From Nitrososphaerota archaeon (GTDB lineage Archaea; Thermoproteota; Nitrososphaeria; Conexivisphaerales; UBA164), in contig JAFLXO010000004.1 of the NCBI GenBank assembly GCA_029786595.1, forward strand, positions 9,817 to 73,816: a stretch of 64,000 bases of DNA. Direction: 5' to 3'. Shown in pieces: positions 300-28,199 of this stretch; position 1 is the first letter of the stretch; each line of letters begins with the position of its first letter. The notes beneath the pieces are model-generated. The model was given only the letters and a program-made list of their open reading frames with translations, was not told the DNA's origin and ran no database searches. The translations under genes were made by a program, and so were the position numbers.

Positions 300-3200
300 A
301 TGTCGGCTCCTATCGCTTTTCTCACTCAGAAGATAAGTGAACAGTCAAAGGGGATAACGGATCTTAAGGGAGGCTTCCTGTTAGGAGCTGGCTATGATGG
401 AGACAAGAAGCTGGCCTACCTTAAATTCTTGGATACTGTTTCACAATCCATCTGTTATTATTATGATAATTCAGGCCATAGGCCCTATTGTTATAGCAAA
501 AAGACGCCATCTGAGCTTCAGCAACTATTAAAGAGGCCGGATGTAATTGCCATAAGGAAGGAAGAGAAACTCGAGCCTATAAGTGACCAGAAGATCGAGG
601 TATCGAAGATAATCACTTCAGATCCGTTAGCCATCGGCGGTTCACCAAACAGCATAAGGAATATCGAGGACTGCTATGAGGCCGATATCAAATATTATGA
701 AAATTACCTCTATGATCTGGGGCTCATTGCCTGTACATATTATGACCTGGAAAAGGGCGTCATAAGCAAGTCAACGATCAGCTACACGGAGGATATGTCA
801 TCCGTGTTGCAGGGGGTGATAGGCTCGCAGGACGCGTCTATGGCCAAATACACGAGAGACTGGGCATTCATCCTTGCTCAACCGTTCCCCTATATAAAAA
901 GGGCCGCGATAGACATCGAAGTATTTGCTGAAGCCGAAAATAGATTGCCGGACCCAGAAAAGGCAGAACAGCCCATTATAAGCATCTCCGTTGTGGGAAA
1001 TGATGGCCAGCGAAAGGCCTTCGTTCTTAGGAGGACGGATGTGGAACCTGGTGATGACAAGCTGCCGGAAGGGGCAGATCTAATTTACTATGATGACGAA
1101 CTCCAGCTTCTGCTTGACTTTTTCAAAAAAATGCTTGAATACCCGGTAATAGTGACATTCAACGGTGATGGCTTTGATCTTCCATACCTGTACCATCGAG
1201 CGCAGAATCTGAATGTGCCTAAGGAAGCTATTCCGATCAGCATCGGTAAGGAGGTCGCATCCCTTAAACATGGAATACACGTCGACCTGTATAAAACATT
1301 CATAAATAGATCGATTCAGGGTTACGCCTTTTCTAACAAGTATTCTGAGCATACTCTTGACGCCATTAGTCAGGCCATCCTAGGCGAAGGAAAGGAACCG
1401 GTTGTAGACAGCATAAATACCATGACCACTACCAAGCTAGCCATATACAATTTGCAGGATTCAAACATAACCTTGGGGCTGACCACTTTCAACGATGATC
1501 TATTGTTCAAGCTCCTGATGACCATATCAAGGGTCGCGAAGATGCCGATCGAAGATACATCGAGGCTAAGCGTTTCCAATTGGATCAGGAGCATGCTTAT
1601 CTTCGAGCACAGAGCTAGGAAAGCGCTGGTGCCCAAGAGGGAGGAAATAGCCGCCAAAGGTAATGCTGGCTCCACGGCGATAATCAAAGGCAAGAAATAT
1701 CAGGGAGGATTCGTTGTAGAGCCGAAACCCGGCGTTCACTTCCAGGTAGTAGTTCTGGACTTTGCCTCCCTGTATCCTAGCATCATTAAGGTCTATAACC
1801 TAAGTTATGAAACTGTAAAGTGCCCACACCCAGAGTGCAGGGATAACATACTTCCTAATACAAATCTATGGGTCTGCAAAATAAACAAGGGTATGATTTC
1901 CCTCCTGATAGGCTCCTTGAGAGATATAAGGGTGAACTATTTTAAATCCCTTGCAAGGATAGCCGTAAACAAGGAACAAAAGCAATTTTACAACGTTATA
2001 TCCCAATCGCTAAAGGTTATACTCAATGCATCATATGGGGTGATGGGGTTCGAAAGCTTCCCCTTCTACAGTTTGCCAGTAGCCGATTCGACTACTGCAT
2101 TGGGGAGATATTCCATACAGAGCGCTATAACAAAGGCTCAGGAACTGGGGAGCGAGGTGATATACGGCGATAGTATAGCCGGTGACTCAATTGTGGTAGT
2201 AGCGACTGAAGGTGAGCAATCCGGTGTTTCACTTTCGCCAGCTGTTGAACGAAAGATGAAGGTTGAGGACCTGTTTAAGAGGGTCGATATAACCGGTGAC
2301 GGGGGGAAGGAGTATTATCTGCCCGAGCATCTCTTTGTAGAATCACTGGATCAAAATAAAATGGTGACGTTTGCGAAGGTCGTCAATATAATGCGCCACC
2401 GAACCGCTAAAGATATGTACAGAATACGGGTGGATGGACATAACATAGACGTTACAGAGGATCATTCGCTCATTTCGATTTCGGAATCCGACAGTTCGCA
2501 ATTTTCACCTATCAGACCGCTGGACATCAAGAAAGGAACGCTGCTTATAACGAGATCGAACACGACGAACGAAGTTAACGCTGGCAGTGGAACAAAGATC
2601 AGTATCTTATCTGCAGGCTATCATTTGGCGCACGCGTCAAGCATAGAGAAGCTGGCTGGCTATCAAGGCTACGTCTATGATCTTGAAGTGGAAGGTAATC
2701 ACCGCTTTTTCGCGAACTCCGTGTTAGTCCATAATACTGACAGCCTCTTTCTAAAAAATGCTTCCTCTATGCAAATCAAGGAAATGGAAAGATGGGCCAA
2801 GGAGAAGCTCGAAATAGATCTGGAGATAGACAAAAGGTACAGGTTTGTGGCGTTCAGTCAGAGGAAAAAGAACTATTTGGGTGTTTATGAAGATGGTTCC
2901 GTAGAGGTAAAGGGACTTTCCGGGAAGAAATCACATACTCCAGATTACATCAAAGAGGCCTTCTATAGCGTACTGGATACGCTTGGGAAGGTCAAGACGG
3001 AGGGTGATTTTGTTGAAGCAAAGGAAGAAATAAGGAAGAAGATACGTGAAGCATATTTGATGATAAATGAAAGGAAGGTGCCACTTGAAAAGTTAGCCTT
3101 TAAGGTCATGCTCAACAAGCCCGTTGACAAGTATACAGTAAGCACGCCGCAGCACGTCAAGGCGGCTCAACTGCTCATCGAAAATGGCAGTGAAATCAAG

Positions 3201-3398
3201 GCCGGCGATGTTATTTCATATATAAAGACTGTGACCCCGTCGGGAGTAAAGCCACTATCTCTGACGAAGAAGGAAGATATAGATACCGGCAAATACGTCG
3301 AGTTCCTTGAAAGTACGTTTGAACAGCTGCTCGATGCTTTAGGGTACAACTTTGATCAGATAATAGGTTCATCGAGAATCGAAGATTTTTTTGGCTAA
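300..3398 (+). CDS. polB: Family-B DNA polymerase, intein-containing
   Basis: Exo motifs (AAIDIEV, FNGDGFDLPYL), pol motif A (LDFASLYPSII) and motif B (KVILNASYGV). Motif C is split as VIYGD / TDSLF by an inserted intein. Confidence 0.95.
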   Translation: MSAPIAFLTQKISEQSKGITDLKGGFLLGAGYDGDKKLAYLKFLDTVSQSICYYYDNSGHRPYCYSKKTPSELQQLLKRPDVIAIRKEEKLEPISDQKIEVSKIITSDPLAIGGSPNSIRNIEDCYEADIKYYENYLYDLGLIACTYYDLEKGVISKSTISYTEDMSSVLQGVIGSQDASMAKYTRDWAFILAQPFPYIKRAAIDIEVFAEAENRLPDPEKAEQPIISISVVGNDGQRKAFVLRRTDVEPGDDKLPEGADLIYYDDELQLLLDFFKKMLEYPVIVTFNGDGFDLPYLYHRAQNLNVPKEAIPISIGKEVASLKHGIHVDLYKTFINRSIQGYAFSNKYSEHTLDAISQAILGEGKEPVVDSINTMTTTKLAIYNLQDSNITLGLTTFNDDLLFKLLMTISRVAKMPIEDTSRLSVSNWIRSMLIFEHRARKALVPKREEIAAKGNAGSTAIIKGKKYQGGFVVEPKPGVHFQVVVLDFASLYPSIIKVYNLSYETVKCPHPECRDNILPNTNLWVCKINKGMISLLIGSLRDIRVNYFKSLARIAVNKEQKQFYNVISQSLKVILNASYGVMGFESFPFYSLPVADSTTALGRYSIQSAITKAQELGSEVIYGDSIAGDSIVVVATEGEQSGVSLSPAVERKMKVEDLFKRVDITGDGGKEYYLPEHLFVESLDQNKMVTFAKVVNIMRHRTAKDMYRIRVDGHNIDVTEDHSLISISESDSSQFSPIRPLDIKKGTLLITRSNTTNEVNAGSGTKISILSAGYHLAHASSIEKLAGYQGYVYDLEVEGNHRFFANSVLVHNTDSLFLKNASSMQIKEMERWAKEKLEIDLEIDKRYRFVAFSQRKKNYLGVYEDGSVEVKGLSGKKSHTPDYIKEAFYSVLDTLGKVKTEGDFVEAKEEIRKKIREAYLMINERKVPLEKLAFKVMLNKPVDKYTVSTPQHVKAAQLLIENGSEIKAGDVISYIKTVTPSGVKPLSLTKKEDIDTGKYVEFLESTFEQLLDALGYNFDQIIGSSRIEDFFG
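2172..2735 (+). mobile_element. Mini-intein (188 aa) inserted in polB motif C (YGD|TDS)
   Basis: Starts with Ser (SIAGDSIVVV, block A). Block B is DVTEDHSLI, and the C-terminal blocks are GYVYDLEVEGNHRFFANSVLVHN followed by +1 Thr. Removing it restores YGDTDS. It is too short for a homing endonuclease domain. Confidence 0.85.
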
Positions 3399-4977: not shown

Positions 4978-5232
4978 TCAAACCGCTGGTATCAGTCTGC
5001 AATTGGGCGGGCATGGCGTCTTTGAAACTGGAAGAACCTTTAATTCGCCACTTTTTATATCAAATTCAGCTCCATGAAATGGGCATCTAATTCTACCATC
5101 AACTATCAGAAATCCCTCTGACGTAATCACCCTACCCTTATGGGGACAGTAATCAAGATAGGAATAGGTTTGGCCATCAACCTTGATCCTAAATGCTGGG
5201 CCGGTCGTTGATAAAAATCGTTCGATTTCCAT
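4978..5232 (-). CDS. Small Rieske [2Fe-2S] domain protein
   Basis: CPHKG ... CPFHGAEF gives the CxH / CxxH Rieske ligand pattern in an 84-aa protein. Confidence 0.75.
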   Translation of the reverse strand: MEIERFLSTTGPAFRIKVDGQTYSYLDYCPHKGRVITSEGFLIVDGRIRCPFHGAEFDIKSGELKVLPVSKTPCPPNCRLIPAV

Positions 5233-5285
5233 TTAACCAATATCACCTAATAAAGACTTTTTACGGTCCCTTTTAAGCCTTATAT

Positions 5286-5882
5286 TTATATTAATTTTGG
5301 CATCTTCAGTCTCATGTCGGTTGTATGCGCAAATCCGAACGAGTGTAAATAATGCGTAAAGGCCTTCTTTATGTTCGTATCTGGCTCCGGGTTCTTCTCG
5401 TAAAAGAACCCTTCCATGAGCTTGGCTACATGATATCTGAAACTTTCTGAGTCCTTTACTACAAAAGTTATTATCCGCGGTTTCAATCCAAACAATGAAG
5501 TGCTGGAATATTTCCTGCCTTCCATGCCCACGCCCGTGCTTATCTTAATTAATTCTAACTCTGGATGAGACCTTCGAATTTTGCGTTCCAGATGGGGGGA
5601 GGTCACTTTAGTAAAGCCATTTATATCTATCAGCTCCATGGCCCTCTGGAATTCCATTTCCTTATAATTCATCAATCCATATTTACTTTTTAATTCCCTT
5701 ATCATCCTGTAAATCGTTGAAAAGCCCCTTTTGGTCATGCTTGATATGCCTTCCACTGAATACCCCTTTTTATACAGTTTAATCACCTGCTCAAATGTAT
5801 TATAATCGTGTAAGTAGAATGGTTTATTCCTTTTATAACTGGAATTAAGATTATTCCATATAATTTTTATATCATCAGCCAT
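5286..5882 (-). CDS. Hypothetical protein with probable N-terminal HTH
   Basis: The segment GYSVEGISSMTKRGFSTIYRMIREL looks like a resolvase-type HTH. The rest is unassigned. Confidence 0.45.
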   Translation of the reverse strand: MADDIKIIWNNLNSSYKRNKPFYLHDYNTFEQVIKLYKKGYSVEGISSMTKRGFSTIYRMIRELKSKYGLMNYKEMEFQRAMELIDINGFTKVTSPHLERKIRRSHPELELIKISTGVGMEGRKYSSTSLFGLKPRIITFVVKDSESFRYHVAKLMEGFFYEKNPEPDTNIKKAFTHYLHSFGFAHTTDMRLKMPKLI

Positions 5883-5946
5883 AACAAATTATCTACTTAA
5901 AGAATATTTAAATATATCTCCAATTTTTATTGTAAATTACAGAGTA

Positions 5947-7173
5947 TCACAAGTTGCGCTTGTCTATATATCCCGATTTATCAGTTTTGAACGCCCATAT
6001 ATTTTTTCTTAAAATCACTGCGCTTAGTGCCATTAGGGATGCCAGCGACAGGAATCCCATGTATAGATAGATAAGGGGCAGAAAGGCGATATTTCCCTTT
6101 AGTTCATCCTTTAACTTGATCATCGAGCCCAGGCTCGTCATCTGGATAATAACGAAATACCCAAATAGATATCCAGCAAAGAGTACGATCCTGTACACCC
6201 CGTATGTCCACAAATATATGGCTATGGGTGTAAGTGAAACCGTCACAAGAAGCAGTATGGAATACAAGGGCATCAGAAGGAATAGAAGCGCGTCCATTGC
6301 AGATATCATACCCGTCTTCTTGAACAGATCCAAGTGATTTCTTACCAGCTGCAGATATCCACCATACCATCTTATCCTTTGCCTGAAGAAAGTTGTGACC
6401 TTTGCTGGCACTTCTATCCAAACGAAGGAATCCAAATACGATGACTTGACCCTATTCTTAATAAGCTTAAGCCATAGATCCACATCCTCAGTTGCACTGT
6501 TGCTAAATCCTCCTATATCAAGCAATAATTCCCGATCCACAAAGGAGTTGTAACCGGCTATCGGAACCGATAACCCTAGCTTGTAACGTCCATAGTTCAA
6601 GGCCCTTGAAGTGAGAGATTCAAACGTAGATAGCTTTGATAGCCACGATTCGCCTACGTTTATCACTTTATAGTACCCGGTCATTGCCTTCTTACCACTC
6701 AAGTACTCCTGCGCGGCTGCCATCAGATAATTTTCGCAGGGGACACTGTCGGCATCCAGTAACGCCACAAGTTTTCCAGTGCAATACTTTAACCCAACAT
6801 TCAATGCACCGGGCTTCCTGTTATAATTCTTCTCCATTTTAACAACCCGGAGCCTTTTATCCTTCTCCGCGAAGGAATTAACTATGGCAAGGGAGTTATC
6901 TGTGGAATCATCAAGTACGAGGACCATTTCGATTAGGTCGGCTGGGTAATTGAGATGGTTGATGGACTGTATCAGCCTCCCGATGGTGTTTTCTTCATTC
7001 TTCACAGCCACTAGGATAGAAATCTTTGGAAGTCCACCGAATGGGAATTTATAGGCTTGCTTATTATTCTTGGATATCGCATTTCCTCCAACTAACATGA
7101 ACAGGCCCCAGTATGATGCTAGGAATATCACTATGCCATTGAAAAGCCAAGTAAGGTCTGCCCCGATTATCAA
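5947..7173 (-). CDS. Membrane glycosyltransferase family 2 (processive, cellulose/chitin-synthase-like)
   Basis: ISILVAVKNEE, DDSTDNS, LDADS (DxD) and QRIRW (QxxRW), with TM segments at both ends. Confidence 0.85.
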   Translation of the reverse strand: MIIGADLTWLFNGIVIFLASYWGLFMLVGGNAISKNNKQAYKFPFGGLPKISILVAVKNEENTIGRLIQSINHLNYPADLIEMVLVLDDSTDNSLAIVNSFAEKDKRLRVVKMEKNYNRKPGALNVGLKYCTGKLVALLDADSVPCENYLMAAAQEYLSGKKAMTGYYKVINVGESWLSKLSTFESLTSRALNYGRYKLGLSVPIAGYNSFVDRELLLDIGGFSNSATEDVDLWLKLIKNRVKSSYLDSFVWIEVPAKVTTFFRQRIRWYGGYLQLVRNHLDLFKKTGMISAMDALLFLLMPLYSILLLVTVSLTPIAIYLWTYGVYRIVLFAGYLFGYFVIIQMTSLGSMIKLKDELKGNIAFLPLIYLYMGFLSLASLMALSAVILRKNIWAFKTDKSGYIDKRNL

Positions 7174-9445: not shown

Positions 9446-9652
9446 TTGAATCGCATAAGGAAGATTTCCACCGAACTGTTGGTGAAATATCCAACTAAAT
9501 TTACAGAGAGCTTTGATTCAAATAAGCTCGCTCTCAATGAGCTTGCCGATATAACTTCGAAAAACCTGAGAAATGAGCTTGCGGGGTATATAACTAAAAA
9601 GATTAAGATGTCTCGGAGAGTTATAGAGGAATCACAAGATGGACAGGAGTAA
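9446..9652 (+). CDS. rps17e: Ribosomal protein S17e
   Basis: IRKISTELLVKYPTKFTESFDSNK...ITSKNLRNELAGYITKK follows the S17e pattern (KYY/KYP, FxxNK, SKKLRNxIAGY). Confidence 0.8.
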   Translation: MNRIRKISTELLVKYPTKFTESFDSNKLALNELADITSKNLRNELAGYITKKIKMSRRVIEESQDGQE

Positions 9653-10487
9653 CGTTCTGGACGTAGATGGTTTCAAGATAAACTTAATGCTGATGCCGCT
9701 TAAGAACATCAGAATTCATGAAGAAGTGCTTCCCAACTATCTTTCTGATCTGACCGAATCTATAAGACAAAGTGGAGTACAGCTAGATCCTATAATAGCA
9801 GATATTAAGACAGGAATCGCACTGGACGGTATGCATCGGATAGAGTCAATCAGAAAACTGGAGTGTAAAAGGATAATGGTTGCCGGGGTTGACTACTCCG
9901 ATCCACGTATAACGCTAAAGAGGTGGCTTCGTTCTGTAAAACTTCCCACAGGGATATTTGATGAATTACGGTATAATTTACAGTTAACCAGGGCCAGGGA
10001 TATGGAAGAAGCGAGATCACTAGTTGATTCAGGGGCATCACCGATAGCCGTTCTAAGCAAGGAAGAATCGTTTATTACATCTATAAAGGCTCAAGGGCTT
10101 GAATATTTTAAACTAGTAAGAAGGTTTGACGCATTGACCCATGGGTTAACTATTTCTCCAATACTCGATATAAATCTAAGGGAATATATTGATGGGGGTT
10201 ATAAGGTCCTTTATGTTCCTACACCTAAAAAGGATGATGTTATATTTTCCGGCATGAGCGGAACGCTATTTCCCCCGAAGTCCACACGCCATTTGATACC
10301 GCTCAGGCCGGTTAACGTTATGTGCCCGCTTGACCTGCTTAAAGGAAGGCTTGCGGACCATGAAGCTGAAGAAAGGTTTAACGAGCTGCTTCTAACCAAA
10401 TCGCGGTCCGAACTCCCGTCCGGTTCAGAATACAAGGGCAGGGTCTACGAGGAGCGATTGACTGTATTTAACGATAGGCAAAGCTAA
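9639..10487 (+). CDS. ParB/sulfiredoxin-fold (ParB-like nuclease domain) protein
   Basis: LKNIRIHEE...LDPIIAD...ALDGMHRIESIRKL contains the DGxHR ParB/Srx core. The C-terminal half is unassigned. Confidence 0.55.
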   Translation: MDRSNVLDVDGFKINLMLMPLKNIRIHEEVLPNYLSDLTESIRQSGVQLDPIIADIKTGIALDGMHRIESIRKLECKRIMVAGVDYSDPRITLKRWLRSVKLPTGIFDELRYNLQLTRARDMEEARSLVDSGASPIAVLSKEESFITSIKAQGLEYFKLVRRFDALTHGLTISPILDINLREYIDGGYKVLYVPTPKKDDVIFSGMSGTLFPPKSTRHLIPLRPVNVMCPLDLLKGRLADHEAEERFNELLLTKSRSELPSGSEYKGRVYEERLTVFNDRQS

Positions 10488-10488: not shown

Positions 10489-11121
10489 TTGAAAATAAAG
10501 CTTCTAGGCAGCCTTTCCTACAAGGGCCGGACAAGGTTCAATGTAAGGACCCAGGGGCCCATCAAGCTTAAGGCCCTATTGGAAAAGATACCGAATGGGG
10601 AACTGACTCCTGGAAACCCTAATCTGATCGTCTTCATAAATGGTGTTGAATTCCACATGCTGGGCGGATATGATGCCATTGTCAGCGAATCCGATGAAGT
10701 AACAATACTCCCAGCAGCTCACGGAGGCTCTGGCTTCAGCGTCCGAATATCTGATAATGACACGGGTGTCACAGCCCAAAAAGGTGTCATAAGCGTCAGG
10801 TGCAGTCGCAGTTGCCTCCGATATATGGGTCACGTCTATTTTACAGCTTTGCAGACTTGGTATGCTCTTGCAAACGACGAACTGATAGCTAAGAAGCCTG
10901 AAGTGGACTACCTAATGAGGTTGTCACGACAGAGGAGAATCTCATTGGCCGTAAAAAGATGTGGAGCTGAAGGCAAGCCGAATAAGGATGTAGTAACTGT
11001 GAGCTTTGGAGAGTACGACATGATAGGGCTGATGATGCCATCTAAGAATATTACAATCTTACCTGAAACCGGTGAAGATGCACTTATAATGGGTGAAGAA
11101 AGCGCGTTAACTGCCATTTAG
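10489..11121 (+). CDS. cgi121: Ubiquitin-like (MoaD/ThiS-type beta-grasp) domain fused to KEOPS subunit Cgi121
   Basis: N-terminal residues ~1-80 end in ...DEVTILPAAHGG, a ThiS/MoaD-like terminus with a di-Gly. The C-terminal segment LQTWYALANDELIAKKPEVDYLMRLSRQRRISLAVKRCGAEG matches the Cgi121 core (xEILxRASGQRQIxxAIKxxGA). Confidence 0.7.
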   Translation: MKIKLLGSLSYKGRTRFNVRTQGPIKLKALLEKIPNGELTPGNPNLIVFINGVEFHMLGGYDAIVSESDEVTILPAAHGGSGFSVRISDNDTGVTAQKGVISVRCSRSCLRYMGHVYFTALQTWYALANDELIAKKPEVDYLMRLSRQRRISLAVKRCGAEGKPNKDVVTVSFGEYDMIGLMMPSKNITILPETGEDALIMGEESALTAI

Positions 11122-11151: not shown

Positions 11152-11430
11152 ATGTCGGTTATGGATAAAAAATACGATGTTCAAGTAAAGACAAAGGATA
11201 AGGCTGCGCGGATACCCAAGGAGGTCATATCGAAGGCCAAGATGGGTCTAAGCGGGAAGATGATAGCAGCAATGAAAAAGGAAATCGTAGATTGTCCATT
11301 GGTCAAGGAAGAGGTTCCATTCCTGTACTGCTTTACCTGCCCATCATATATACGGAGGGTAAAGGGCGTAGTGCACTGCGCCGCTATCAAGGGCCCATAT
11401 GGTAGCATGGGAGCAGAGGCTACAGCTTAG
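11152..11430 (+). CDS. Hypothetical small Cys-rich protein
   Basis: VDCP...YCFTCP...VHCAA could be a metal-binding cluster. No family assigned. Confidence 0.4.
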   Translation: MSVMDKKYDVQVKTKDKAARIPKEVISKAKMGLSGKMIAAMKKEIVDCPLVKEEVPFLYCFTCPSYIRRVKGVVHCAAIKGPYGSMGAEATA

Positions 11431-15460: not shown

Positions 15461-15479
15461 ATAGAAGCCCCGGGCGAGG
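15461..15479 (+). repeat. attL-like direct repeat (duplicated tRNA-Thr 3' fragment)
   Basis: atagaagccccgggcgagg here versus atagtagccccgggcgagg at 33304-33322, with one mismatch. Confidence 0.75.
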
Positions 15480-15562
15480 ATTCCTATATAAACATTAAAT
15501 CACGCCATTATGAATATATGGTATTATAGCGTCTAGCATTAATCTGTCTTTTATTATATGAC

Positions 15563-15697
15563 ATGATATCCAATTTGCTAACCGTGGAGGAAGTGGCAAC
15601 AACGCTGAAGGTGCCGGAGACGACTATCAGGAAGTGGCTTAAGGATGGGAAGCTCAAAGGGGTTAAGCTTCCCAACGGGGACTGGCGGATCCCCTAG
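15563..15697 (+). CDS. Excisionase-family / MerR-type HTH DNA-binding protein (44 aa)
   Basis: Own translation: MISNLLTVEEVATTLKVPETTIRKWLKDGKLKGVKLPNGDWRIP. This is the classical excisionase-type HTH pattern (LLTxxEaAxxLxvsxxTixxwxxxGklxxxkxgxxwrip). It is below the ORF-track size cut-off. Confidence 0.7.
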   Translation: MISNLLTVEEVATTLKVPETTIRKWLKDGKLKGVKLPNGDWRIP

Positions 15698-15720
15698 GAT
15701 GCCGTAAGGGAGATGATGAA

Positions 15721-15975
15721 GTGATGGTCCTGCTAGAACTAAGGAAAGTGACTCAGGACCGCCTGGCGCGCAAGCTCAAGAGCGATATGCACAAATTTGA
15801 AACGATAGACGAAGTCATAAATTATGGCCTTGACGCAATTGAAGTAATGGACAAGCTGGTGGATGACAGCTACGTCATGAGCGTAATCGATGGTGTCTTT
15901 GACCAACAGAAGGCAGACAGAATTACGGAGCTTGAGGAGGAGCTTGAGTCACTGAAGGCAGGGGTTGAAGCATAA
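15721..15975 (+). CDS. Hypothetical small protein (coiled-coil C-terminus)
   Basis: ORF only. The acidic, helical C-terminus is ITELEEELESLKAG. Confidence 0.4.
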   Translation: MMVLLELRKVTQDRLARKLKSDMHKFETIDEVINYGLDAIEVMDKLVDDSYVMSVIDGVFDQQKADRITELEEELESLKAGVEA

Positions 15976-15993
15976 AGGGGCACCCCTTTGGGG

Positions 15994-16347
15994 CTACTCC
16001 CTGGCTGTCTCCTCCGTGAAAGGTGCAGGCTTCAGGACCATCGTTATGCCCTGGTAAATCCTCCAGTCCGTAGTCACTATGAGCAGCTTCCGGACGAACT
16101 TCCTTGCCTCAATCAGCAAAGCCCGTAAGTTTGTGTCGTCCTTGAAACGGTGCCCCTCCTCGATAACGATAACCCAGTTCTTTAGCGCCCCGGAGTTCTT
16201 GACGAAGTTCAGGTGTGAGAATATCGTGGCCGCTTCAGCCTGTGATATCTGGACGTTGGGGTTGGGCACGAAACGAAGCTTTTCCCCGCTTGCCTGCTCC
16301 CACTTTATGCTGAAGAAATGGCCCACGTCACCTGGTTCAGGATCCAC
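15994..16347 (-). pseudogene. 3' fragment of a HerA/FtsK/VirB4-like (DUF87-type) ATPase gene
   Basis: Only the tail is present: WVIVIEEGHRF (Walker-B-like hhhhEExH) and IEARKFVRKLLIVTTD. There is no Walker A or N-terminal part, and the upstream side is occupied by the IS110 remnant. Confidence 0.45.
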
Positions 16348-17189
16348 CTCAGATATTTGCTTCCCTGCTTAGTTATCGGACCATAGAAAGTATTTTCCCC
16401 TGATGAGTGGGTTGATGGTGATAGGCCTGAATACGAAACAAGATGGTTTGAATCGGTGAACCTGCCTATGTCACCGATTTCACTGACTATCATCAGCGCA
16501 GAATAGTACGATATTCCTGGTATTGTCATCAGGTTCCTTGCGTCATCGTTGTTTTCGGCCATCTTCATTATCATATCCGATGCCCCCTTTATTTCATTGT
16601 TTAACGACTCAATCACGTTCAGGTATCCGTTTATCTTGAAATCCTTCAATTCTCTTAACTTGTTCATGTATTCCTGAGTGAAAGGATAACCGTCTATCTT
16701 GACATTGTACATGAGCAGCCTTGCATGAACTTTATTCTTTGTCACTGCCCTAATCCTAACGAGGTTAGCCCTGTACCTTACAAGCTCCCTCAGCTGCATC
16801 ACTTCACCCGGTGGTATGTAGCTCTGGGCTATATACCCTCCCCTTAGCAGGTTGGCAAGGGTTTAGGCATCAATTTTGTCAGTCTTCACCTTTGCCGAAG
16901 CTATCACCTTTGTCTTCAGCGGATTGGACAGGACCACGTTATGCCTTTCAGACAGCGCTCGGTATGCCCAGTACCAGGTTGAAGAGCTCTCTATTACAAC
17001 ATCCGATTTCTCAGGAAGGGATTCGGAGAAATCCCTCAGGCTATCTGGCTCAGACTTCATCTTAACCTCATTGAGCACTTTCCCATTTTCATCCATAACT
17101 GCTGCATTCAGCGTTAGCTTGTGGAGATCAATCCCAACAAACATGTGCTTACTGTCACCTGATTTCCTAATATCCTTATTCCCGCTCAC
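16305..17189 (-). pseudogene. IS110-family transposase, inactivated (in-frame TAA, 3'-truncated); IS remnant
   Basis: The N-terminal ORF (FVGIDLHK...KTDKIDA) and the C-terminal ORF (TIPGISYYSALMIVSEIGDIGRF...GPITKQGSKYLRWIL) are in the same frame (885 nt). They are separated only by a TAA at 16863-16865 (KIDA*TLANLLRGGYIAQSYIPPGEV). The usual C-terminal ~50+ aa after ...LNQ are missing. Confidence 0.8.
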
Positions 17190-17822
17190 ATATAACTAAA
17201 ACAAACAAAGGACCGTGGGTTTTACCTTTATATATTTTGATAACAGCAACACAAACAACAAAAATGCCGTGTAATAACATACAAAATATTGAGGACTACA
17301 ATTTATTAAGCCATACTGTGTGGTTATTTTTTCGATGATAGATATAATGCCATTAAAGCAATTATGCAGGCAAGAGCTGCCCACTGACTCGCTGTTAAGA
17401 ATGTCAATTGAAGCCGAACGGGATTACTTGATGCCAGAGGAATATCTTGCAAAGCTCAAAGTGTGGCATGTAATGTTAGACCGCGAATTAGGCAAAACCA
17501 AGTGGAAGATGCTTTGCAACACGCGAAATTAAAATCTCAACTGATAATTAAAATTAATTTTTATTTACTTTCTATAAAACCAATCAGCTTTTCTGGCTCA
17601 GTTTCATTAAGGCAACCTATAAAATCAGAATATGAAGCTACCTGGTGAATTTGCGAGCAGAAATTAATACTTTTATACAGCGGTACATTTTTTATAAGCT
17701 GCATCACAATGGAGGTTTTAATATCAGATAGTTGGGCTTTACGTTGGTTAAGCCTGAACTCTGAGGGCTACAGCAGGTTAAAATCTTTAGAAATTAGCAC
17801 GGGCTTTTAACGGTAAACATTT

Positions 17823-18425
17823 CTAACAATCAAAATAAAGGTCCGAAAAACTGATAGTTTCTGCAAATTTAATTATGCTATCTTTTGGATCAATATTTAC
17901 GAAATTTTTTTTAATTAATTTCTCTAATGATTCATCGAATATTAATGCTGTAAAGTTGCCTATCAATTGTTTGTATTTATTACCGAAGGCCTTAGTTATT
18001 ACGTAACACCTTTTACGGAGACCTGTCTTAATGACACGCTCATCCTTTTTTTCTATTTTCAAACTTTTATTCCTTTGGTATATTTTACCAAATAACTTAT
18101 TCAGTTGCATATCAATATCTTTAGAATCTGCATCGAACATAAAGATTAGATTTGAGTTAGCATGGGTTATTTGTAACAATATGCCCGGGAATAATTTAAA
18201 AAGTCTGCCTTTTCCGTGTTCCTCTTTCAATAGTATATGATATGGAGAACTTGGCGAAAGGAAGGAACTTATAACATTAGTTTCAATGGCTTTTTCGGAA
18301 TTCCTTTTTCTCTCTTCTTCAAAATTGAACTTCTTATAGACGCAGCCAGTTGTTTTTTCTTTTTTGATAACTGTTTCTACAAATAATGAGTCGTTTGCTC
18401 CTTCCAATATAACTATTTGTTTCAC
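17823..18425 (-). CDS. TOPRIM-like small partner protein (DUF4435/DUF4276/RloB-like) of the upstream ABC ATPase
   Basis: The N-terminus MKQIVILEGANDSLFVE fits the hhhhEGxxD TOPRIM-type glutamate motif, and FMFDADS further on fits DxD. Its start at 18425 directly abuts the ATPase stop at 18426. The family assignment is from motif memory only. Confidence 0.45.
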   Translation of the reverse strand: MKQIVILEGANDSLFVETVIKKEKTTGCVYKKFNFEEERKRNSEKAIETNVISSFLSPSSPYHILLKEEHGKGRLFKLFPGILLQITHANSNLIFMFDADSKDIDMQLNKLFGKIYQRNKSLKIEKKDERVIKTGLRKRCYVITKAFGNKYKQLIGNFTALIFDESLEKLIKKNFVNIDPKDSIIKFAETISFSDLYFDC

Positions 18426-19718
18426 TCAAATTCCCCTCAGGTCCAAACCGACATCGTTAAGACTTTCTTTAGCTTGAGCTATGTTCATCTCTTCCGAGAT
18501 TATTGTGCCGGCCTTTTCTTTTTTATTTAATCTAATTATATTTGTATTCCGTTTTAGGAATTCTATTTCTTCTTTGGAAAGGGTCGTGGGATTAACAACG
18601 CTATCAATTAAGTCAAAACTATGTGTTGTAATGAAAATTTGATGATGCCCCCTTTTAGACAATCTGATCAAGTACTTGAGAAATTCAATTATGTAACCTG
18701 GGTGCATGTGCACCTCTGGCTCCTCAAGCAGGATTACAGACCTTGGAGGAGAACCCGCAAGGGTCGCAAGTAGCGATATCAGGACCCTAAAGCCATCACC
18801 CATAAGGTTTAACGGAATGATTCCGTCTCCCTCTAAGACGATCGAATTAAAGGAAAACCGTTCGAGACCTTGAATTAAATCCGCTTCTTTAATAATTTTC
18901 TGGACCTCATTTGCAACGCTTTCATTTTGTTCCGAGCTTTTCAAGCTCTCAATAGGGTCCTTTATGTAGATCAATCTTTCTCGGTGTCTTTTATAGCTTG
19001 TTTCTTTTCGACGATTCGCACTAAACCCATAAAGCATATATCTGGGAATGATGTCCGAGGTGTGCCTGACTAGATCTTTTACATCTGGGGTTTCTTTGGC
19101 AATTAAACTAAGTATTTCCCGTATTAATTCATCATACACATTCGAATACGGATGGCCTTTAAAATAACCACTATTCCTTCCGTCATACCATCTGAGTGTC
19201 ATTTTAGCGGCATTTTGAATTTTTTCCCTATTGGATTCAACGTCCAATACCTTATTTATATAGCTATCAATTGTTCTATCCTTTAATATTTTTTTAATAG
19301 TTTTTTCCAATTTAGTTGTTTTGTTTAGATCATGTAGTAAAAACAGAAATATAGACCGAGGTAAATGCTGTAATCCATCTTGGAATTCCTTTTTAAATAT
19401 TACTAAGAACTCTTCCAAGTCAATGTGATAAAGTTCCAATTTCTCTTCCTTCGATCTATTATAATGTATTTGTATTATACTGCTGCTGCCCTTGTGATTA
19501 ATTAAATTTGATGGATTACTCTGATAATTTGGTGGAAGTTCATGACTGTCTTGCATTAAATTCAATGCTTCTAATACCGAAGTTTTCCCCGTATTGTTCC
19601 TTCCAACCAATATATTCAATTTGCGCGGATGTATTTCAATAAAATCTATTGCTTTAAAATATTCAATAGTTAATTTATTAATCATCAATCCCCTTTCATG
19701 TAATTGATAAAGTTTCAA
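18426..19718 (-). CDS. ABC/SMC-like ATPase (AAA_15/AAA_21-type, OLD/AriA/AbiL-ATPase-like)
   Basis: Walker A GRNNTGKTSVLEAL, signature-like LMGDGFRVLISLL, Walker B SVILLEEPEVHMHP, and H-loop IFITTHS. Confidence 0.8.
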   Translation of the reverse strand: MKLYQLHERGLMINKLTIEYFKAIDFIEIHPRKLNILVGRNNTGKTSVLEALNLMQDSHELPPNYQSNPSNLINHKGSSSIIQIHYNRSKEEKLELYHIDLEEFLVIFKKEFQDGLQHLPRSIFLFLLHDLNKTTKLEKTIKKILKDRTIDSYINKVLDVESNREKIQNAAKMTLRWYDGRNSGYFKGHPYSNVYDELIREILSLIAKETPDVKDLVRHTSDIIPRYMLYGFSANRRKETSYKRHRERLIYIKDPIESLKSSEQNESVANEVQKIIKEADLIQGLERFSFNSIVLEGDGIIPLNLMGDGFRVLISLLATLAGSPPRSVILLEEPEVHMHPGYIIEFLKYLIRLSKRGHHQIFITTHSFDLIDSVVNPTTLSKEEIEFLKRNTNIIRLNKKEKAGTIISEEMNIAQAKESLNDVGLDLRGI

Positions 19719-20752
19719 CTATTTAAGAATATTGTTTAAGGTAATAGAGTAGACCGCAGGTCTTACCCTGCGGCCCCTCGTCGAACGTAGCGGGCGGATT
19801 TCCCGCACTACGCTCACCAATGATGTTCATAGTGCCACTGTGTAGAGAACGGGTTTAATCCGTATATTGAGGACTGAAATGCCAGCACCTATTATACTCC
19901 TGTATTTTCCTGTATGCTTCTTCTGATGTCACCTTTTGTACATTCTACAGAGGGACAGGTCAACAAGAAGAGAATCTGCATCAGCAAATTGTGAACAGGG
20001 ATGCGATTGTGGGCTTTTTGGAAAAAGCAACCAGCGGCACCGTTTTTCGAAAGCAGGGCAGGAAAATGAAAATTTAATTCATCTATGGTGACTACGCAAT
20101 GGGAAAGGGGGTTACTGCAAAGGAGGCCGGGAAAATGATGAATGACAAGATATTGAAAGTGCTGACCACGTTCGCGAGAAAGGAGCTCGACATAGCCGAC
20201 TGATTTTATGAAATGCTCACCAACAAAAAGATATAAGCAGGGTTGTGCATAAGAAGGGTATGTCGAAGCATTATACTGCAAATAGTAAATCCGGCCGATG
20301 GCATTATGGGCTGCGGCTTTCCGCGTGCCCAAATGGCCTGCTTTAATGGAATTGTTACTTACGTGTCAGTGCTCCTATAAACGATTTCAGGTCTTGGATC
20401 CTTATTTCTATGTCATCCTTTAACGACGGATAAAGGGCCTGCTGGCTTCTAAACTCTTTAATACCCCCTTCCAGCTATGGCGACAAGGATTTTAACCAGG
20501 ACTTCCTCATTGCCATCGGTATATATTCGTTCAATTGCTTTGCATAGGCTAAAACTGGATGGCAAATATGTACCTGTTAAGGAGTTGTACAGCTTCCCCA
20601 ACTTCTCCCTAAAGAAGATTGTTTCGGGAAATAAGTCTGGTCTCTCTACCAGGTTATATATGCCCTCTTCAGAAAATTTTGCCGCTGGTCTAACCCGTTT
20701 TCCGTTGGTGTAGAACTGCCCTCAAACAACAGGAAAAGAAACTCCCTTTTAT

Positions 20753-23014
20753 TTATGTAAAACAAATGCAGTCCCCTTGGTTAAAAATTTTTACCATCTC
20801 ATCCCCCTGCCTGTCAGCATATCCCTTGCCGAGCACGTGGAAAGCGAGAATTCTTACTAAATTGCCTATACCGCTCTTGAATTCCATGTTGAATGCCGTT
20901 GGCGTACCCATGGAATAAACGCCGGGTCGGGGTGCCTCCGGCTTGGTCTCCGGTTTGTTGTCTGGCTGCGATGGCGCCTCCGGCTTGCTTTCCGGTTGCT
21001 GTGTAATCGGTCCTTTCTTGTTGCCCCTGCGTCTTAACGCAAGCGCGGCTCCAGTGATTACGGCCGCCATCACTATCACGATTATGGCTATGTTGGTATA
21101 GTTGTAAGTGTAGTTAACGGTCAGGGAGGCCTGCACGGAATACCCTGTCGCGTCCGTCGCGGTTACGTTCAGCACGTTCTGGCCCATGTTCGCAAGCTGG
21201 TAGGTATAGGTTGCAGACGTGGTGGTGGCCACCTCCTGCCCGTTAAGATACCATGTGTAGGTGTAGGGGGATGTCCCGCCGCTCATCGCCGCATCCAGCA
21301 CAACGATATCGTTGGAATAGAGGAAGCTGCTGGAGCCGAGGGTGTATGTGCCGTTCATGGAGGGGTCCGGGTTCACGGTCAAGGAGATAGTGTTTGAGTT
21401 GACCTGGTAACCAAGGGAATCAGTGAGCCTTGCGGTAATCTGGTAACTGCCAGGGTTGGCAAGGGTGGTGGTGTCCCCGCTCATTAGGTTGCCATCGAGG
21501 TAGTAGGCTATGCTGTAGGGCGGGGTGCCCTGTGAAGTGCTTGCGGAGACCGTTAGCGTCTGCCCTGTATCGTACGCATTGCTCGGCACGGATATGGAGA
21601 TAGTAGGATCAGGATTAACGGTGAAGTATAAGATATTTGAATCAACCTTGTACCCGGTGGAATCGGTAAGTTGCGCATAGACTTGATGAGTTCCGGAGCC
21701 TGATGCCGTAGGTATGCTATTCCCAACGGGCACCCCATCAAGGTAATATGTGATAGTGTATGGGGGAGAGCCCATGGATGTGCTTATGGAAATATCAAGT
21801 GCCTGTCCTGCATCATAAGTTATAACTGGCATCGTAATGGAGATCGTAGGACCAGCGTTGATTGTAAGAAACACGAAGTTTGACAATGTCGCGGTATCTC
21901 CAATTGAATCAACCACCTCGAAAGTAGGGGTATATGTGCCGGCGCCGAGATTGTTGACAGTAAATGCAGAATTATAGTTGGTAGAAGAAGTGGAGGAGCT
22001 AAAAACCATTGTGCCATTCACGTAGATGTAGTAATAATATGGTGGGACGCCTCCGCTAACCACAGAATTAAAAGAATCGCTCAGCGGCATTCCCGCATCG
22101 CCAGTTTCAGAATAAGAATTGATAGTTACGTTCATATAAATAGGCCCGGTTATGAACATATTTGTATCCGCATATTCAGTGGCCCCATTGGACGAATATG
22201 GGTATAGCTGGCTGGTAAGGGATATCGGGTTTGAAGTCGACGTGGAGAAAAGGACCTGCTGGGTATTTGTATTATATTCATCAACCCACAGCCAGGCCGA
22301 AGTGAACTGGAATCCCTGCTCTGAATAGGTGACCTGCTGCTCACTCCCATAATATGGGTTGGTGTGGTACCATTCTGTCATCAGTCCGGTGAAGAAGCCG
22401 TTGGAATTCGAGGTGCTGTACCCGTTCTGGCCCTGGAAGTATGTGGCTCCCTCAGAGCTGAAGGTCTCCGAGGCACTGGCGCCCGTGTTCCAGTCATAGG
22501 CATACATTTTCACCACGCCGGTGGAGTTGTCAAAGTATAAATTGAGGAGCACTAAATCACCGCTGTTGACCGGTCCGGAGAAGCTATCCATGCCGCTTCC
22601 TCCAGCTGTAGGGAAAATTGAGGTGCCACTGGGGTTGAATACTTCATAGTTCATGTCGAAGCCGGCAGTTGGGCCATCCCAATCGTATGATAAGCCAACC
22701 TGATACCAGTAACCGGTATTTGACAACCCGTTTAAAAGATACGCCGGTCCATAGCCGGAACCACTCACTTGAGCTATCGCAGTTACGTTAAACGCGAGCG
22801 ATGTAAAATCCTGGGTAAAGGATTCACCCAACTGTTCATCCCAGTTGGCTGCTGGCGAATTGGCACCCTGTAATCCGGCAACTTCTGCTGATGGCAGCAG
22901 CCCGGCCGGATGAACATTAACAGCGCCGGCCTGGGCATTGGCGTGCGCAAAGGACGGGCTTGCGGCCAGCGGAAGGGTGAGCAACAGTAGGATAAGCCAG
23001 ATCTTATTTAGCAT
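20753..23014 (-). CDS. Secreted, membrane-anchored surface protein: possible acid-protease-like (thermopsin/eqolisin-like) N-domain followed by PKD-like repeats
   Basis: Signal peptide MLNKIWLILLLLTLPLAASPSFAHANA. Four PKD-like modules with GxxPYxYxW/Y motifs (GGVPPYYYYIY, GSPPYTITYY, GTPPYSIAYY, GGTSPYTYTWY). TM segment IAIIVIVMAAVITGAALAL followed by RRRGNKK, then a Pro/Glu/Lys-rich tail. The N-domain call is weak (GYWYQVGL, LMTEWY). Confidence 0.7.
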   Translation of the reverse strand: MLNKIWLILLLLTLPLAASPSFAHANAQAGAVNVHPAGLLPSAEVAGLQGANSPAANWDEQLGESFTQDFTSLAFNVTAIAQVSGSGYGPAYLLNGLSNTGYWYQVGLSYDWDGPTAGFDMNYEVFNPSGTSIFPTAGGSGMDSFSGPVNSGDLVLLNLYFDNSTGVVKMYAYDWNTGASASETFSSEGATYFQGQNGYSTSNSNGFFTGLMTEWYHTNPYYGSEQQVTYSEQGFQFTSAWLWVDEYNTNTQQVLFSTSTSNPISLTSQLYPYSSNGATEYADTNMFITGPIYMNVTINSYSETGDAGMPLSDSFNSVVSGGVPPYYYYIYVNGTMVFSSSTSSTNYNSAFTVNNLGAGTYTPTFEVVDSIGDTATLSNFVFLTINAGPTISITMPVITYDAGQALDISISTSMGSPPYTITYYLDGVPVGNSIPTASGSGTHQVYAQLTDSTGYKVDSNILYFTVNPDPTISISVPSNAYDTGQTLTVSASTSQGTPPYSIAYYLDGNLMSGDTTTLANPGSYQITARLTDSLGYQVNSNTISLTVNPDPSMNGTYTLGSSSFLYSNDIVVLDAAMSGGTSPYTYTWYLNGQEVATTTSATYTYQLANMGQNVLNVTATDATGYSVQASLTVNYTYNYTNIAIIVIVMAAVITGAALALRRRGNKKGPITQQPESKPEAPSQPDNKPETKPEAPRPGVYSMGTPTAFNMEFKSGIGNLVRILAFHVLGKGYADRQGDEMVKIFNQGDCICFT
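21110..22141 (-). repeat. Four tandem PKD/Ig-like coding repeats (about 80-95 aa each) inside the surface protein gene
   Basis: Residues ~292-635. Repeats 2 and 3 align closely (PTISITMPVITYDAGQALDISISTSMGSPPYTITYYLDG versus PTISISVPSNAYDTGQTLTVSASTSQGTPPYSIAYYLDG). Confidence 0.6.
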
Positions 23015-23163
23015 TCCTACATAATATCTTGAATATTATTTAACCATTTAGCAGTCTTTTACATATATTTTAACTACGCACTGTAGTTCGTACAAAACTT
23101 GGGCCAACCTCTGCGAGTCTAATTATTTTTATGCTTAGTTTGCTGATCTTGGCCTGACAAAGA

Positions 23164-23922
23164 TTATCTATCAAGCTGCGGGCTTTGGCCTGATTCTTTA
23201 ATTATAACCTGCTTTCCTTTTTCCGTCAATTCATAATGTTTCTTGAATAAGCCTACTTTCCTTAGATAACCTCTAGCTATTAAATCCTTCAAAATGGAAA
23301 TATTATCAGGATTTATTGTCTTTCTATCTAGCCAACCACTATCCGCTTCTATTAACATATCATATTCTGAAAGTTTAGAAATATCAATACTTGAATTCAA
23401 GATTTTTTGTAGGTTTTTAATTTCGTTTATTAATGGTACCCTTTCATTCGCGGTTCCAACCATAGAAAGACGTTTCTTAGCATAGTTCAGCTTCTTAGTT
23501 ATCATCTCTACATAGTTGGCATTGCCATGATCAGGAGCTAATGGAACGGTTTGTAATTTATCAGTTTCTGATATTAATGTGGCCTGCCGAACCCGATCTT
23601 CTACTTCAGAGATCAGGTCGGCTTCACTTACTTTGGAGTTACCCTCCCACATCGCTACAATTAGATGGGATGCAACCGTTTCAGGCATAACTATAGGATA
23701 TGACCCAAGCTTGGTATTGAACGCCTCTCTCAGAATATTATTTAGACTTGTATGTGATATTTCACATTTAGCGGTGGCCCAAAATCCGTTATTGGTGCTT
23801 GCTAAATAATCCCTTAGCCCACCGCTCACAAAATCGAGACCAATAGAGCGGGGAAAGGGAAGTTCACCCAGCTGGATTTTAACATCTACATCATTTGAGG
23901 ACCGAACATCTGAGGTAAGCAT
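23164..23922 (-). CDS. Hypothetical protein, unknown N-domain plus C-terminal winged helix
   Basis: The C-terminus ISILKDLIARGYLRKVGLFKKHYELTEKGKQVI is MarR-like wHTH. The N-terminal 190 aa are unrecognised. AT-rich gene next to the RM gene. Confidence 0.5.
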   Translation of the reverse strand: MLTSDVRSSNDVDVKIQLGELPFPRSIGLDFVSGGLRDYLASTNNGFWATAKCEISHTSLNNILREAFNTKLGSYPIVMPETVASHLIVAMWEGNSKVSEADLISEVEDRVRQATLISETDKLQTVPLAPDHGNANYVEMITKKLNYAKKRLSMVGTANERVPLINEIKNLQKILNSSIDISKLSEYDMLIEADSGWLDRKTINPDNISILKDLIARGYLRKVGLFKKHYELTEKGKQVIIKESGQSPQLDR

Positions 23923-24187
23923 TGTTCCTCATTTTCAATTGACTATGGGATTTATATACGTATTGACTAAAAGGGTCTTCATTTCAGGCGCGTGCCATTG
24001 AAGGCGATAGGCTGTCCGTATTTGCCGAAAGGCGTATCAAGATGGCAATAAGCCAGATAGTCAAAAGAGAACTCGATCTTGACTCTCATAATGCTTTAAA
24101 ATTCTAGGTATGATAGAATGGTTTATGATAATAAAAAACCGTCAGTAATGGCTTGGCCGCCAGCGGCTCTTTTCATATCAGCTTTAT

Positions 24188-24294
24188 GTTCGTTTTACCA
24201 TTTTCGCATGAAATAAAGATGCCATAAGAAATACGAACAGGTTCGCTTTACTATTTTTACATGAAATATGACGCCTAATTAGAAGTGCGAACAG
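24188..24294. repeat. Two head-to-tail imperfect repeats (53 + 54 bp)
   Basis: Unit 1 is gttcgttttaccattttcgcatgaaataaagatgccataagaaatacgaacag. Unit 2 is gttcgctttactatttttacatgaaatatgacgcctaattagaagtgcgaacag. Each unit starts with gttcg and ends with cgaacag, and the junction forms the palindrome cgaacaggttcg. Confidence 0.6.
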
Positions 24295-24646
24295 TAAATC
24301 AGGGCATTTAGGCATACCCCCCGATTGCCCTTCTTAAGCGCGGATAAACCATGCGCGCCAAGCGTGGGCCAAGGGTAAAGCCGTTCATATTTCTGAAAGA
24401 AAAGCGAACTTTTTTAAGACACATCCCCGGTCTTTTTTGACAGCTCGTTTCATGTGCCAAAATATCGGGGATATTGCACCAATTTAGCCGGATTTAGGGG
24501 TGTTTTAGGATAATTAAGGGCTATTGGCGTGGAATTAGATGTTCCTAAGGATGAGCCAGAACAGCTACCTGATCATGATGCGAATGCCTCCTGCTGTCCG
24601 CTACCTGTTGAAACAGGTGTCGTCACATTGAATGTTGCTCAGAAAG

Positions 24647-28029: not shown

Positions 28030-28199
28030 ACAGTCAACCGGTAGGGGCGCACCCCTTAGAGTGGGGTATTTTAATCAATTAGATCATGATGTTTGGGAAG
28101 GAAAGAAAGCTAAAGAACGGCAGCTATTAACACGACAAAGTCAGCATGCCGCTAAAGTCCATACCGTCTATCTTTTCTACCTGCATATTATATAGATCG

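Follow-up and report, generated by a model that had tools for sequence, protein, structure and literature searches.

KEOPS makes the universal N6-threonylcarbamoyladenosine (t6A) modification of tRNA, and its subunit Cgi121 brings tRNA to the complex and activates Bud32 for t6A37 synthesis. Ubiquitin-like proteins (Ubls) of the Urm1/SAMP2 type are adenylated and thiocarboxylated at their terminal glycine by E1 enzymes of the MoeB/UbaA type, for the formation of 2-thiouridine at position 34 (s2U34) and for conjugation. The gene considered here, at 10489-11121 (plus strand) of a 64,000-nucleotide stretch (the window) of contig JAFLXO010000004.1 from a Nitrososphaerota archaeon, joins a domain of each kind in one protein. 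Such fusions have been known since 2010 and appear in routine annotations, and the window gene is a divergent, trimmed instance. Makarova and Koonin (Archaea 2010:710303, PMC2948915) described a Ubl-Cgi121 fusion that is conserved throughout the Thaumarchaea and apparently cotranscribed with the gene for ribosomal protein S17, and discussed its ties to t6A and SAMPylation. Cgi121 was missing in that analysis only from the Sulfolobales/Desulfurococcales and Nanoarchaeon; as the fusion is present in all Thaumarchaea, it was evidently counted there as the Cgi121 orthologue. The genes encoding Sulfolobales URM1 homologues are likewise linked to the S17 gene, and the authors proposed coordinated functioning or regulation, not processing (PMC2948915). 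A literature search, covering among others a KEOPS review, the Pcc2 paper and a 2025 paper on archaeal Urm1, returned no experimental study of the fusion.

The window protein shares with the Thaumarchaeal fusion of the 2010 paper its domain order (N-terminal Ubl, C-terminal Cgi121), its phylum and its linkage to the gene for ribosomal protein S17e. It is, however, shorter (210 versus ~257 amino acids) and 20-27% identical to the Nitrosopumilus proteins. Its Cgi121 domain lacks helices alpha1 and alpha5-alpha7 and scores below threshold for the curated Cgi121 models, and a SerK-like gene lies between S17e and the fusion.

A second set of described systems is relevant to the internal Gly-Gly of the window protein. 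Eukaryotic ubiquitin-ribosomal protein fusions are processed Ubl-partner precursors. In Mycobacterium tuberculosis, the MoaD-MoaE fusion MoaX needs cleavage between Gly82 and Ser83 for activity (PMC4326299), and this cut falls between the same junction residues as Gly80 and Ser81 of the window protein. Deinococcus radiodurans MoaD-MoaE is reported to be cleaved by DRJAMM (PMC8832034), and the Caldiarchaeum ubiquitin precursor to be processed by CsRpn11 (PMC6043591). All of these have an N-terminal Ubl, an internal Gly-Gly and a functional partner directly after it, as does the window fusion. Cleavage of the processed precursors has been shown experimentally, whereas that of the Ubl-Cgi121 fusion is a proposal; in addition, the partner in the window fusion belongs, as a subunit, to another tRNA-modification complex and is not the enzyme that uses the Ubl thiocarboxylate. 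From the analogy with MoaX and the conservation described below, the best reading of the window protein may be that of a precursor cut after Gly80, and it is put forward here tentatively. The parts of the gene are as follows.

10489-11121, plus strand: open reading frame (ORF) of the Ubl-Cgi121 fusion, 210 amino acids, TTG start, TAG stop at 11119-11121
10489-10728, plus strand: Urm1/MoaD/ThiS-type beta-grasp Ubl domain, residues 1-80 (AlphaFold2 (AF2) model, Foldseek, family profile)
10720-10728, plus strand: His78-Gly79-Gly80 (cac gga ggc), an internal Urm1-type tail, followed by Ser81 (alignment conservation)
10729-11118, plus strand: reduced Cgi121 (KEOPS subunit) domain, residues 81-210 (Foldseek, profile, alignment)
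10891-10965, plus strand: residues 135-159, KKPEVDYLMRLSRQRRISLAVKRCG, equivalent to alpha3-alpha4, predicted contact surface for the tRNA 3'-CCA end (mapping to Methanocaldococcus jannaschii Cgi121)
11080-11115, plus strand: C-terminal helix, residues 198-209, equivalent to Cgi121 alpha8, which meets the Bud32 N-lobe (AF2 prediction, conservation)

The frame runs through 210 codons without interruption in the ORF translation, as an initial annotation of this DNA had noted. The TTG start is backed by the N-terminus MKIKLLGS, which aligns with the N-termini of all homologues; the first internal methionine of the fusion protein is residue 112, and there is no alternative start nearby. It could be argued that adjacent Ubl and Cgi121 genes have been merged by a sequencing or assembly error, through a lost stop codon or a frameshift, and an overlapping two-gene arrangement at the Ubl/Cgi121 boundary does exist in related genomes. 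However, 23 contigs from several independent assemblies carry the identical 210-amino acid protein (P0001), the two domains are also fused in orthologues that are 87% and 65% identical, and there are more than 1,100 fused homologues, some of them in complete genomes. Comparison with the 87%-identical orthologue at locus L008 gives ratios of nonsynonymous to synonymous substitution rates (dN/dS) of 0.16 in the Ubl half (residues 1-80) and 0.25 in the Cgi121 half (residues 81-210), which indicates purifying selection on both halves. Because of these ratios and the 23 contigs, the frame is not a frameshift or assembly artefact, and merging by error can practically be discounted. The segment is a real, selected, single gene. 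The initial annotation had allowed that it might really be two genes, which holds true for related genomes but not for the genome of the window. It had also assumed a member of the Thermoplasmata. The protein sources are instead labelled Nitrososphaerota/Thaumarchaeota metagenome-assembled genomes (MAGs), so the survey of Thermoplasmata that it suggested is the wrong one.

The assignment of residues 1-80 to the MoaD/ThiS/SAMP-type Ubls and of the remainder to Cgi121, both proposed in that annotation, is borne out by the AF2 model, by Foldseek and by the family profile. The two motifs that it quoted are also present as given: ILPAAHGG is residues 73-80, and EVDYLMRLSRQRRISLAVKRCGAEG is residues 138-162. 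The AF2 model was built on a 45-sequence alignment and has a predicted local distance difference test (pLDDT) score of 84.3; a 5-sequence alignment gave a pLDDT of 51. In the model, residues 2-75 form a beta-grasp of beta-beta-alpha-beta-beta topology, followed by a 7-residue tail or linker that carries the HGG motif and then by the sheet and helices of Cgi121, whose first beta-strand begins 2-3 residues past the Gly-Gly. Foldseek matches the Ubl with probability 1.00 to Urm1/MoaD/SAMP chains (1wgk, 2k9x, 4wwm and 1jwb_D, with 2ax5 also matched), among them mouse and Trypanosoma brucei Urm1, Sulfolobus solfataricus Urm1 (4wwm) and MoaD (1jwb_D, target-normalised TM-score 0.70). A profile built from 45 fusion representatives and searched against the PDB finds its best matches in Urm1 structures (T. 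brucei 1.1e-13, yeast 7e-12). Taken alone, the window protein scores 17.1 bits against both Pfam Urm1 (PF09138, cut-off 21.8) and Pfam ThiS (PF02597, cut-off 22.5), below the cut-off in each case.

HGG is the most conserved motif of the fusion family. His78 is the sole invariant column among the 45 representatives (at most 50% identity), which are only ~20% identical to the window protein, and Gly79 and Gly80 are at least 90% conserved. The motif is kept in 173 of 175 fusion-sized relatives, the two exceptions being P0019, which has HCS, and P0131, which has no Ubl. The residue directly after the Gly-Gly in those 173 relatives is small in 160 (serine in 122, alanine in 31, threonine in 7). Stand-alone Ubl homologues of 82-97 amino acids stop exactly at profile position 80 and end in HGG. 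Yeast Urm1, Sulfolobus Urm1 (4wwm) and the Haloferax volcanii SAMPs share the beta-grasp and the HGG tail with the window protein. In these modifiers, however, the Gly-Gly is the free C-terminus, whereas in the window protein it lies at residues 79-80 of 210 and is internal. An E1 can neither adenylate nor thiocarboxylate an internal Gly-Gly. With 130 residues behind it, E1-dependent adenylation of the fusion would thus be impossible without proteolysis.

The second half of the protein resembles canonical archaeal Cgi121 in fold, with a Foldseek probability of 1.00 to chains 1zd0, 3enh_C, 8up5_C, 7kjt_H and 8k20_C and target-normalised TM-scores of 0.45-0.52. The 45-sequence profile matches Cgi121 structures as well (Pyrococcus furiosus 1.2e-12, M. 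jannaschii 8e-11, human TPRKB 2e-7), the archaeal matches falling in the range 1e-12 to 9e-11. Canonical archaeal Cgi121 (M. jannaschii MJ0187, P. furiosus PF0523; structures 3enh, 7kjt, 8up5 and 1zd0) is a free protein of 140-150 amino acids that begins at beta1; the beta1 of the window protein stands 2-3 residues behind the Ubl Gly-Gly. Free Cgi121 relatives of this size align to profile positions ~95-210. Alignment with relatives of 244-258 amino acids indicates that the window clade lacks helix alpha1 and ~37 residues of alpha5-alpha7, and the moderate TM-scores fit this loss. The window protein alone scores 15.6 bits against Pfam CGI-121 (PF08617, cut-off 25) and 34.7 bits against NCBIfam Cgi121 (NF011465, cut-off 40), and these sub-threshold scores account for its NCBI name, 'MoaD/ThiS family protein'.

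Cgi121 binds Bud32 mainly by its last helix, alpha8, and the CCA end by alpha1, alpha3 and alpha4 (PMC8565320), and in M. jannaschii it touches the CCA end of tRNA via F21, K56, M60, Q71, I72 and G80 (PMC7718258). In the profile alignment, K56 corresponds to K135 of the window protein, M60 to V139, Q71 to R150, I72 to I151 and G80 to G159. The lysine, isoleucine and glycine are thus shared with canonical Cgi121, as is the C-terminal alpha8, whereas M60 and Q71 are replaced by valine and arginine and alpha1, with its F21 contact, is missing. The near-invariant columns of the C-terminal half in the fusion family (L142, R144, I151 and G159) lie on the CCA surface, and the helix at 198-209 is conserved at E203, A206 and L207. 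The model and the alignment together suggest that this Cgi121 has been trimmed, with the Bud32 helix intact and the predicted CCA surface largely but not fully preserved.

A profile search of a 5.8-billion-protein set yields 1,105 proteins at E<=1e-5; among the matches listed, PF02597 is present in 120 of 120 and PF08617 in all but two, and their source names are 'KEOPS complex subunit Cgi121', 'sulfur carrier protein ThiS' or both JGI names. An exhaustive profile search finds 539 relatives in three classes: two-domain proteins, free Ubls and free Cgi121 proteins. The two-domain class comprises ~55 cluster representatives of 240-260 amino acids that span both halves, and the window protein can be aligned end to end with 45-57 fusion representatives. 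Against the NCBIfam model of Cgi121 (cut-off 40), the Nitrosopumilus orthologue (Nitrosopumilus koreensis P0190) reaches 166 bits. HGG-bearing Ubl-Cgi121 fusions of 271-311 amino acids (P0031, P0108, P0117 and the P0041 cluster) come from MAGs labelled Sulfolobales, Desulfurococcaceae and Candidatus Verstraetearchaeota. To judge from these proteins, the fusion is distributed more widely than the 2010 paper, which reported it as specific to Thaumarchaea, indicated.

A contig search with a narrow family alignment finds five loci. In other Nitrososphaeria MAGs, the Ubl, a 111-amino acid mini-Cgi121 and a ThiF/MoeB-type E1 are encoded in one operon, flanked by a histidine phosphatase gene and a gene resembling endonuclease III (EndoIII).

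L006, 350-2000: operon of Ubl, 111-amino acid mini-Cgi121 and ThiF/MoeB-type E1
L009, L010 and L011, ~5000-6676: the same operon
L015, 5001-6626: the same operon, with Ubl and mini-Cgi121 fused

At L006, the last codons of the Ubl ORF encode ILPAAHGG, its TGA stop overlaps the ATG of the mini-Cgi121 gene (ATGA), and the next gene is of the ThiF family. The Ubls of three MAGs (L009, L010 and L011) have two more, variable residues after the HGG (QY, KN or RD); the Ubl gene overlaps that of the mini-Cgi121 by 4 nucleotides, again as ATGA, and an E1 of 349-353 amino acids comes next. At these four loci, from sister Nitrososphaeria lineages, the split point is thus at the Gly-Gly or one or two codons beyond it. 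At L015 (GCA_002499005.1), a fused Ubl-miniCgi121 of 193 amino acids occurs within the His_Phos / X / ThiF / EndoIII synteny. Fused and split forms therefore alternate at one locus, with the E1 gene immediately downstream. The Ubls of L006 and L010 pass the Pfam ThiS model (34-40 bits), while the mini-Cgi121 alone has no Pfam match.

The linked E1 matches Pfam ThiF at 2.6e-61, NCBIfam ThiF/MoeB at 1e-59 to 1e-57, UbaA at 6e-49 and TcdA at 6e-13, and the E1 proteins of two sub-lineages are ~53% identical. Had the linked E1 been TcdA, the E1-like enzyme of cyclic t6A synthesis, its tie to Cgi121 would have required no Ubl chemistry; this identification is ruled out by the margin between the ThiF/MoeB/UbaA matches (1e-59 to 1e-49) and the TcdA match.

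The initial annotation had offered three possibilities without preference: a Ubl precursor that is processed, a physical tie between t6A and the thiolation or sampylation machinery, and a structural adaptor. The natural splits, the linked E1 and the near-invariant HGG tilt the balance toward a Ubl that can still be activated, and not a degenerate adaptor. A Ubl domain that always stays part of a larger protein normally loses its Gly-Gly. A precursor cut between Gly80 and Ser81 is favoured here because an internal Gly-Gly cannot be activated, because unreleased Ubls usually lose it, because HGG is the best-conserved motif of the family, and because the Ubls of sister lineages end at this point beside an E1. 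In such a model, which is the least certain part of the explanation, a cellular peptidase would make the cut, the JAMM/MPN+ type being the most plausible, and would release an Urm1-like protein that ends in a Gly-Gly carboxylate. An E1 of the MoeB/UbaA type could then adenylate and thiocarboxylate the freed Ubl, for thiolation of the tRNA wobble uridine and possibly for urmylation. From what is known of the family, the Cgi121 part would work in KEOPS, recruiting ANN-decoding tRNAs by their CCA end and stimulating Bud32, with Kae1 making t6A37. The fusion would yield sulfur carrier and t6A subunit in a fixed 1:1 ratio. We infer the KEOPS role from the conservation of alpha8 and of the CCA contacts, from the neighbourhood in N. 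koreensis, where the fusion is closely followed, on the other strand, by Sua5 and a THUMP-domain gene, and from the orthology implied in PMC2948915.

Several points weigh against such a cut. Cleavage is reported in the literature searched for no member of the Ubl-Cgi121 family. An operon would suffice for co-expression, as it does in the split lineages, yet the fusion persists phylum-wide and beyond, so that the covalent link may be of importance in itself. In the P0019 lineage, the two domains are still fused even though HCS stands in place of HGG. Neither the Ubl models nor the Cgi121 models score the window protein above their curated cut-offs, and the protein has no alpha1, a helix with a part in the binding of CCA by M. 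jannaschii Cgi121. Partner genes are also not apparent. Family scans of window ORFs at ~0.3-58.0 kb (that is, apart from 58,012-63,866 and a few short ORFs) find no JAMM/MPN protease, NcsA, Kae1, Bud32 or Pcc1 gene (nor one for Sua5), and no E1 gene is found either in these scans or in a tblastn search of the whole window with the linked E1. The flanks of the loci examined contain no JAMM/MPN protease gene in any case.

Some of these points would fit a two-domain KEOPS subunit that is not cleaved, with the Ubl as a permanent N-terminal appendage of Cgi121. The Ubl might dock an E1-like enzyme, an NcsA-type thiolase, the proteasome or the ribosome to KEOPS, or might aid solubility or folding, and HGG might be retained because it serves as a flexible hinge or binds an E1 non-covalently. 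Retention of the fusion across the Nitrososphaerota, and also in the Sulfolobales, Desulfurococcaceae and Verstraetearchaeota MAGs, suggests some value in the linkage. The linker is very short, with a Cgi121 strand 3 residues past the Gly-Gly, none of the loci has an associated protease gene, and the P0019 lineage is fused without a Gly-Gly; coordinated functioning or regulation was also what PMC2948915 favoured over processing. The conservation of HGG is harder to explain in this way, given the usual loss of Gly-Gly from unreleased Ubl domains. Related lineages make the halves as separate chains broken at the Gly-Gly, so the link is not essential, and an E1 gene is tightly linked in the sister loci although an internal Gly-Gly could not be activated by it. 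An uncleaved subunit is a real possibility, nearly as likely as the precursor cut after Gly80.

The E1-linked operons raise another possibility, in which the Cgi121-like domain, above all in its reduced form, serves the Urm1/E1 pathway instead of KEOPS or alongside it, for example as an adaptor that binds the CCA end and offers the tRNA for thiolation. In that case t6A would be made without the reduced Cgi121 domain or with another Cgi121. Two sub-lineages have conserved the operon of Ubl, 111-amino acid mini-Cgi121 and ThiF-type E1, the mini-Cgi121 goes unrecognized by Pfam, and the window protein has an equally reduced architecture and misses the curated Cgi121 thresholds. Cgi121 is also dispensable in some archaea, being absent from the Sulfolobales/Desulfurococcales (PMC2948915). 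However, the window gene is the S17e-linked positional orthologue of a Nitrosopumilus gene whose product reaches 166 bits with the Cgi121 equivalog model, the predicted Bud32-binding C-terminal helix is retained and conserved, and nothing in these genomes points to a further Cgi121 gene, although whole genomes were not checked. Such an accessory role is quite unlikely.

If the precursor is indeed cut after Gly80, a more elaborate arrangement can be imagined, a single tRNA-modification station that would be reflected in the recurrent grouping of Ubl, Cgi121 and E1 genes, fused or translationally coupled. Cgi121 on KEOPS would hold the CCA end, while the Ubl, cleaved and thiocarboxylated by an E1, would give its sulfur to U34, so that t6A37 and s2U34 would be made in one docking, for instance on tRNA-Lys(UUU); the fusion would then be the archaeal counterpart of the ubiquitin-ribosomal-protein precursor genes. 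This extension is rather unlikely.

The fusion gene occurs in two types of genomic context. The first, S17e-(SerK-like)-Ubl-Cgi121, is found in the window clade and for P0004-P0006, with Nitrosopumilus lacking the SerK-like gene, and the second is the E1-linked arrangement of Ubl and mini-Cgi121 described above. The linkage to S17e is kept at L004, L005, L012 and L013. In the window, the neighbouring genes are the following.

9446-9652, plus strand: ribosomal protein S17e gene, first of an apparent operon (Pfam Ribosomal_S17e 7.8e-12)
9639-10487, plus strand: SerK-like gene, free serine kinase family (NCBIfam SerK 7.5e-17, full length)
11152-11430, plus strand: 92-amino acid Cys-rich ORF (CPLVKEEVPFLYCFTCPSYIRRVKGVVHC), membership of the operon uncertain (translation)

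The SerK-like gene overlaps the S17e stop by 14 nucleotides and ends 1 nucleotide ahead of the start codon of the fusion, and is translationally coupled between the two. Its product matches PDB entries 1vk1 (7e-11) and 5x0b (1e-8) and retains the motifs HE, DGxHR and PKxTRH. A SerK-like gene is in the equivalent position at L004, L012, L013 and L014, but not in Nitrosopumilus. As a speculation, the kinase might feed O-phosphoserine to a cysteine synthesis of the CysO/CysM-like, Ubl-thiocarboxylate kind; no CysM-like gene is seen. The Cys-rich ORF lies 30 nucleotides 3' of the fusion, has conserved counterparts in the window clade alone (L008 and L012), and has no family match in Pfam or NCBIfam.

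Elsewhere in the window, there is an integrated mobile element of ~17.8 kb (15461-33325) at a tRNA-Thr(TGT) gene (33309-33382, minus strand), with these components.

15461-15482 and 33304-33325: 22-nucleotide direct repeat bounding the element
16305-17189: IS110 transposase, split into two ORFs
18426-19718: AAA_15/AbiEii-like ATPase, with a 200-amino acid partner
20753-23014: Ig-domain protein
24647-27028: N6-adenine methylase/restriction-modification protein
29214-31007: D5-like primase-helicase
32067-33305: tyrosine integrase

The element is absent from sibling MAG contigs L001 and L002, where the leucyl-tRNA synthetase (LeuRS) gene is directly followed by a 150-amino acid ORF and RpiA. Near the start of the window, a family-B DNA polymerase gene (300-3398, plus strand) contains an intein (Intein_splicing domain, residues 686-812). 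A co-directional block at 52493-58015 (plus strand) encodes aspartate kinase, aspartate-semialdehyde dehydrogenase, a DeoC-family aldolase, 3-dehydroquinate (DHQ) synthase II, dehydroquinase and shikimate dehydrogenase, and its gene content corresponds to the archaeal route into the shikimate pathway of the aspartate-semialdehyde/6-deoxy-5-ketofructose 1-phosphate (DKFP) type. Upstream of it, at 46044-49437, is a three-subunit molybdoenzyme of the xanthine-dehydrogenase/CO-dehydrogenase family.

Urm1-type proteins stand at the evolutionary junction of prokaryotic sulfur carriers and eukaryotic ubiquitin-like modifiers. To the fusion as it was described in 2010, the present analysis adds the conservation of HGG, the splits at the Gly-Gly, the linkage to an E1, the wider distribution and the loss of alpha1 and alpha5-alpha7 from the Cgi121 domain of the window protein. 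The occurrence of split and fused variants at one syntenic locus sharpens the question of whether the fused form is cut where the split form ends. If it is cleaved at the Gly-Gly, it would be a prokaryotic example of a Ubl precursor fused to a translation-machinery protein, as in eukaryotic ubiquitin genes. A conserved covalent or operonic link between Urm1 and KEOPS in TACK archaea argues for thiolation and threonylcarbamoylation of the anticodon loop that may be co-regulated or physically coupled.

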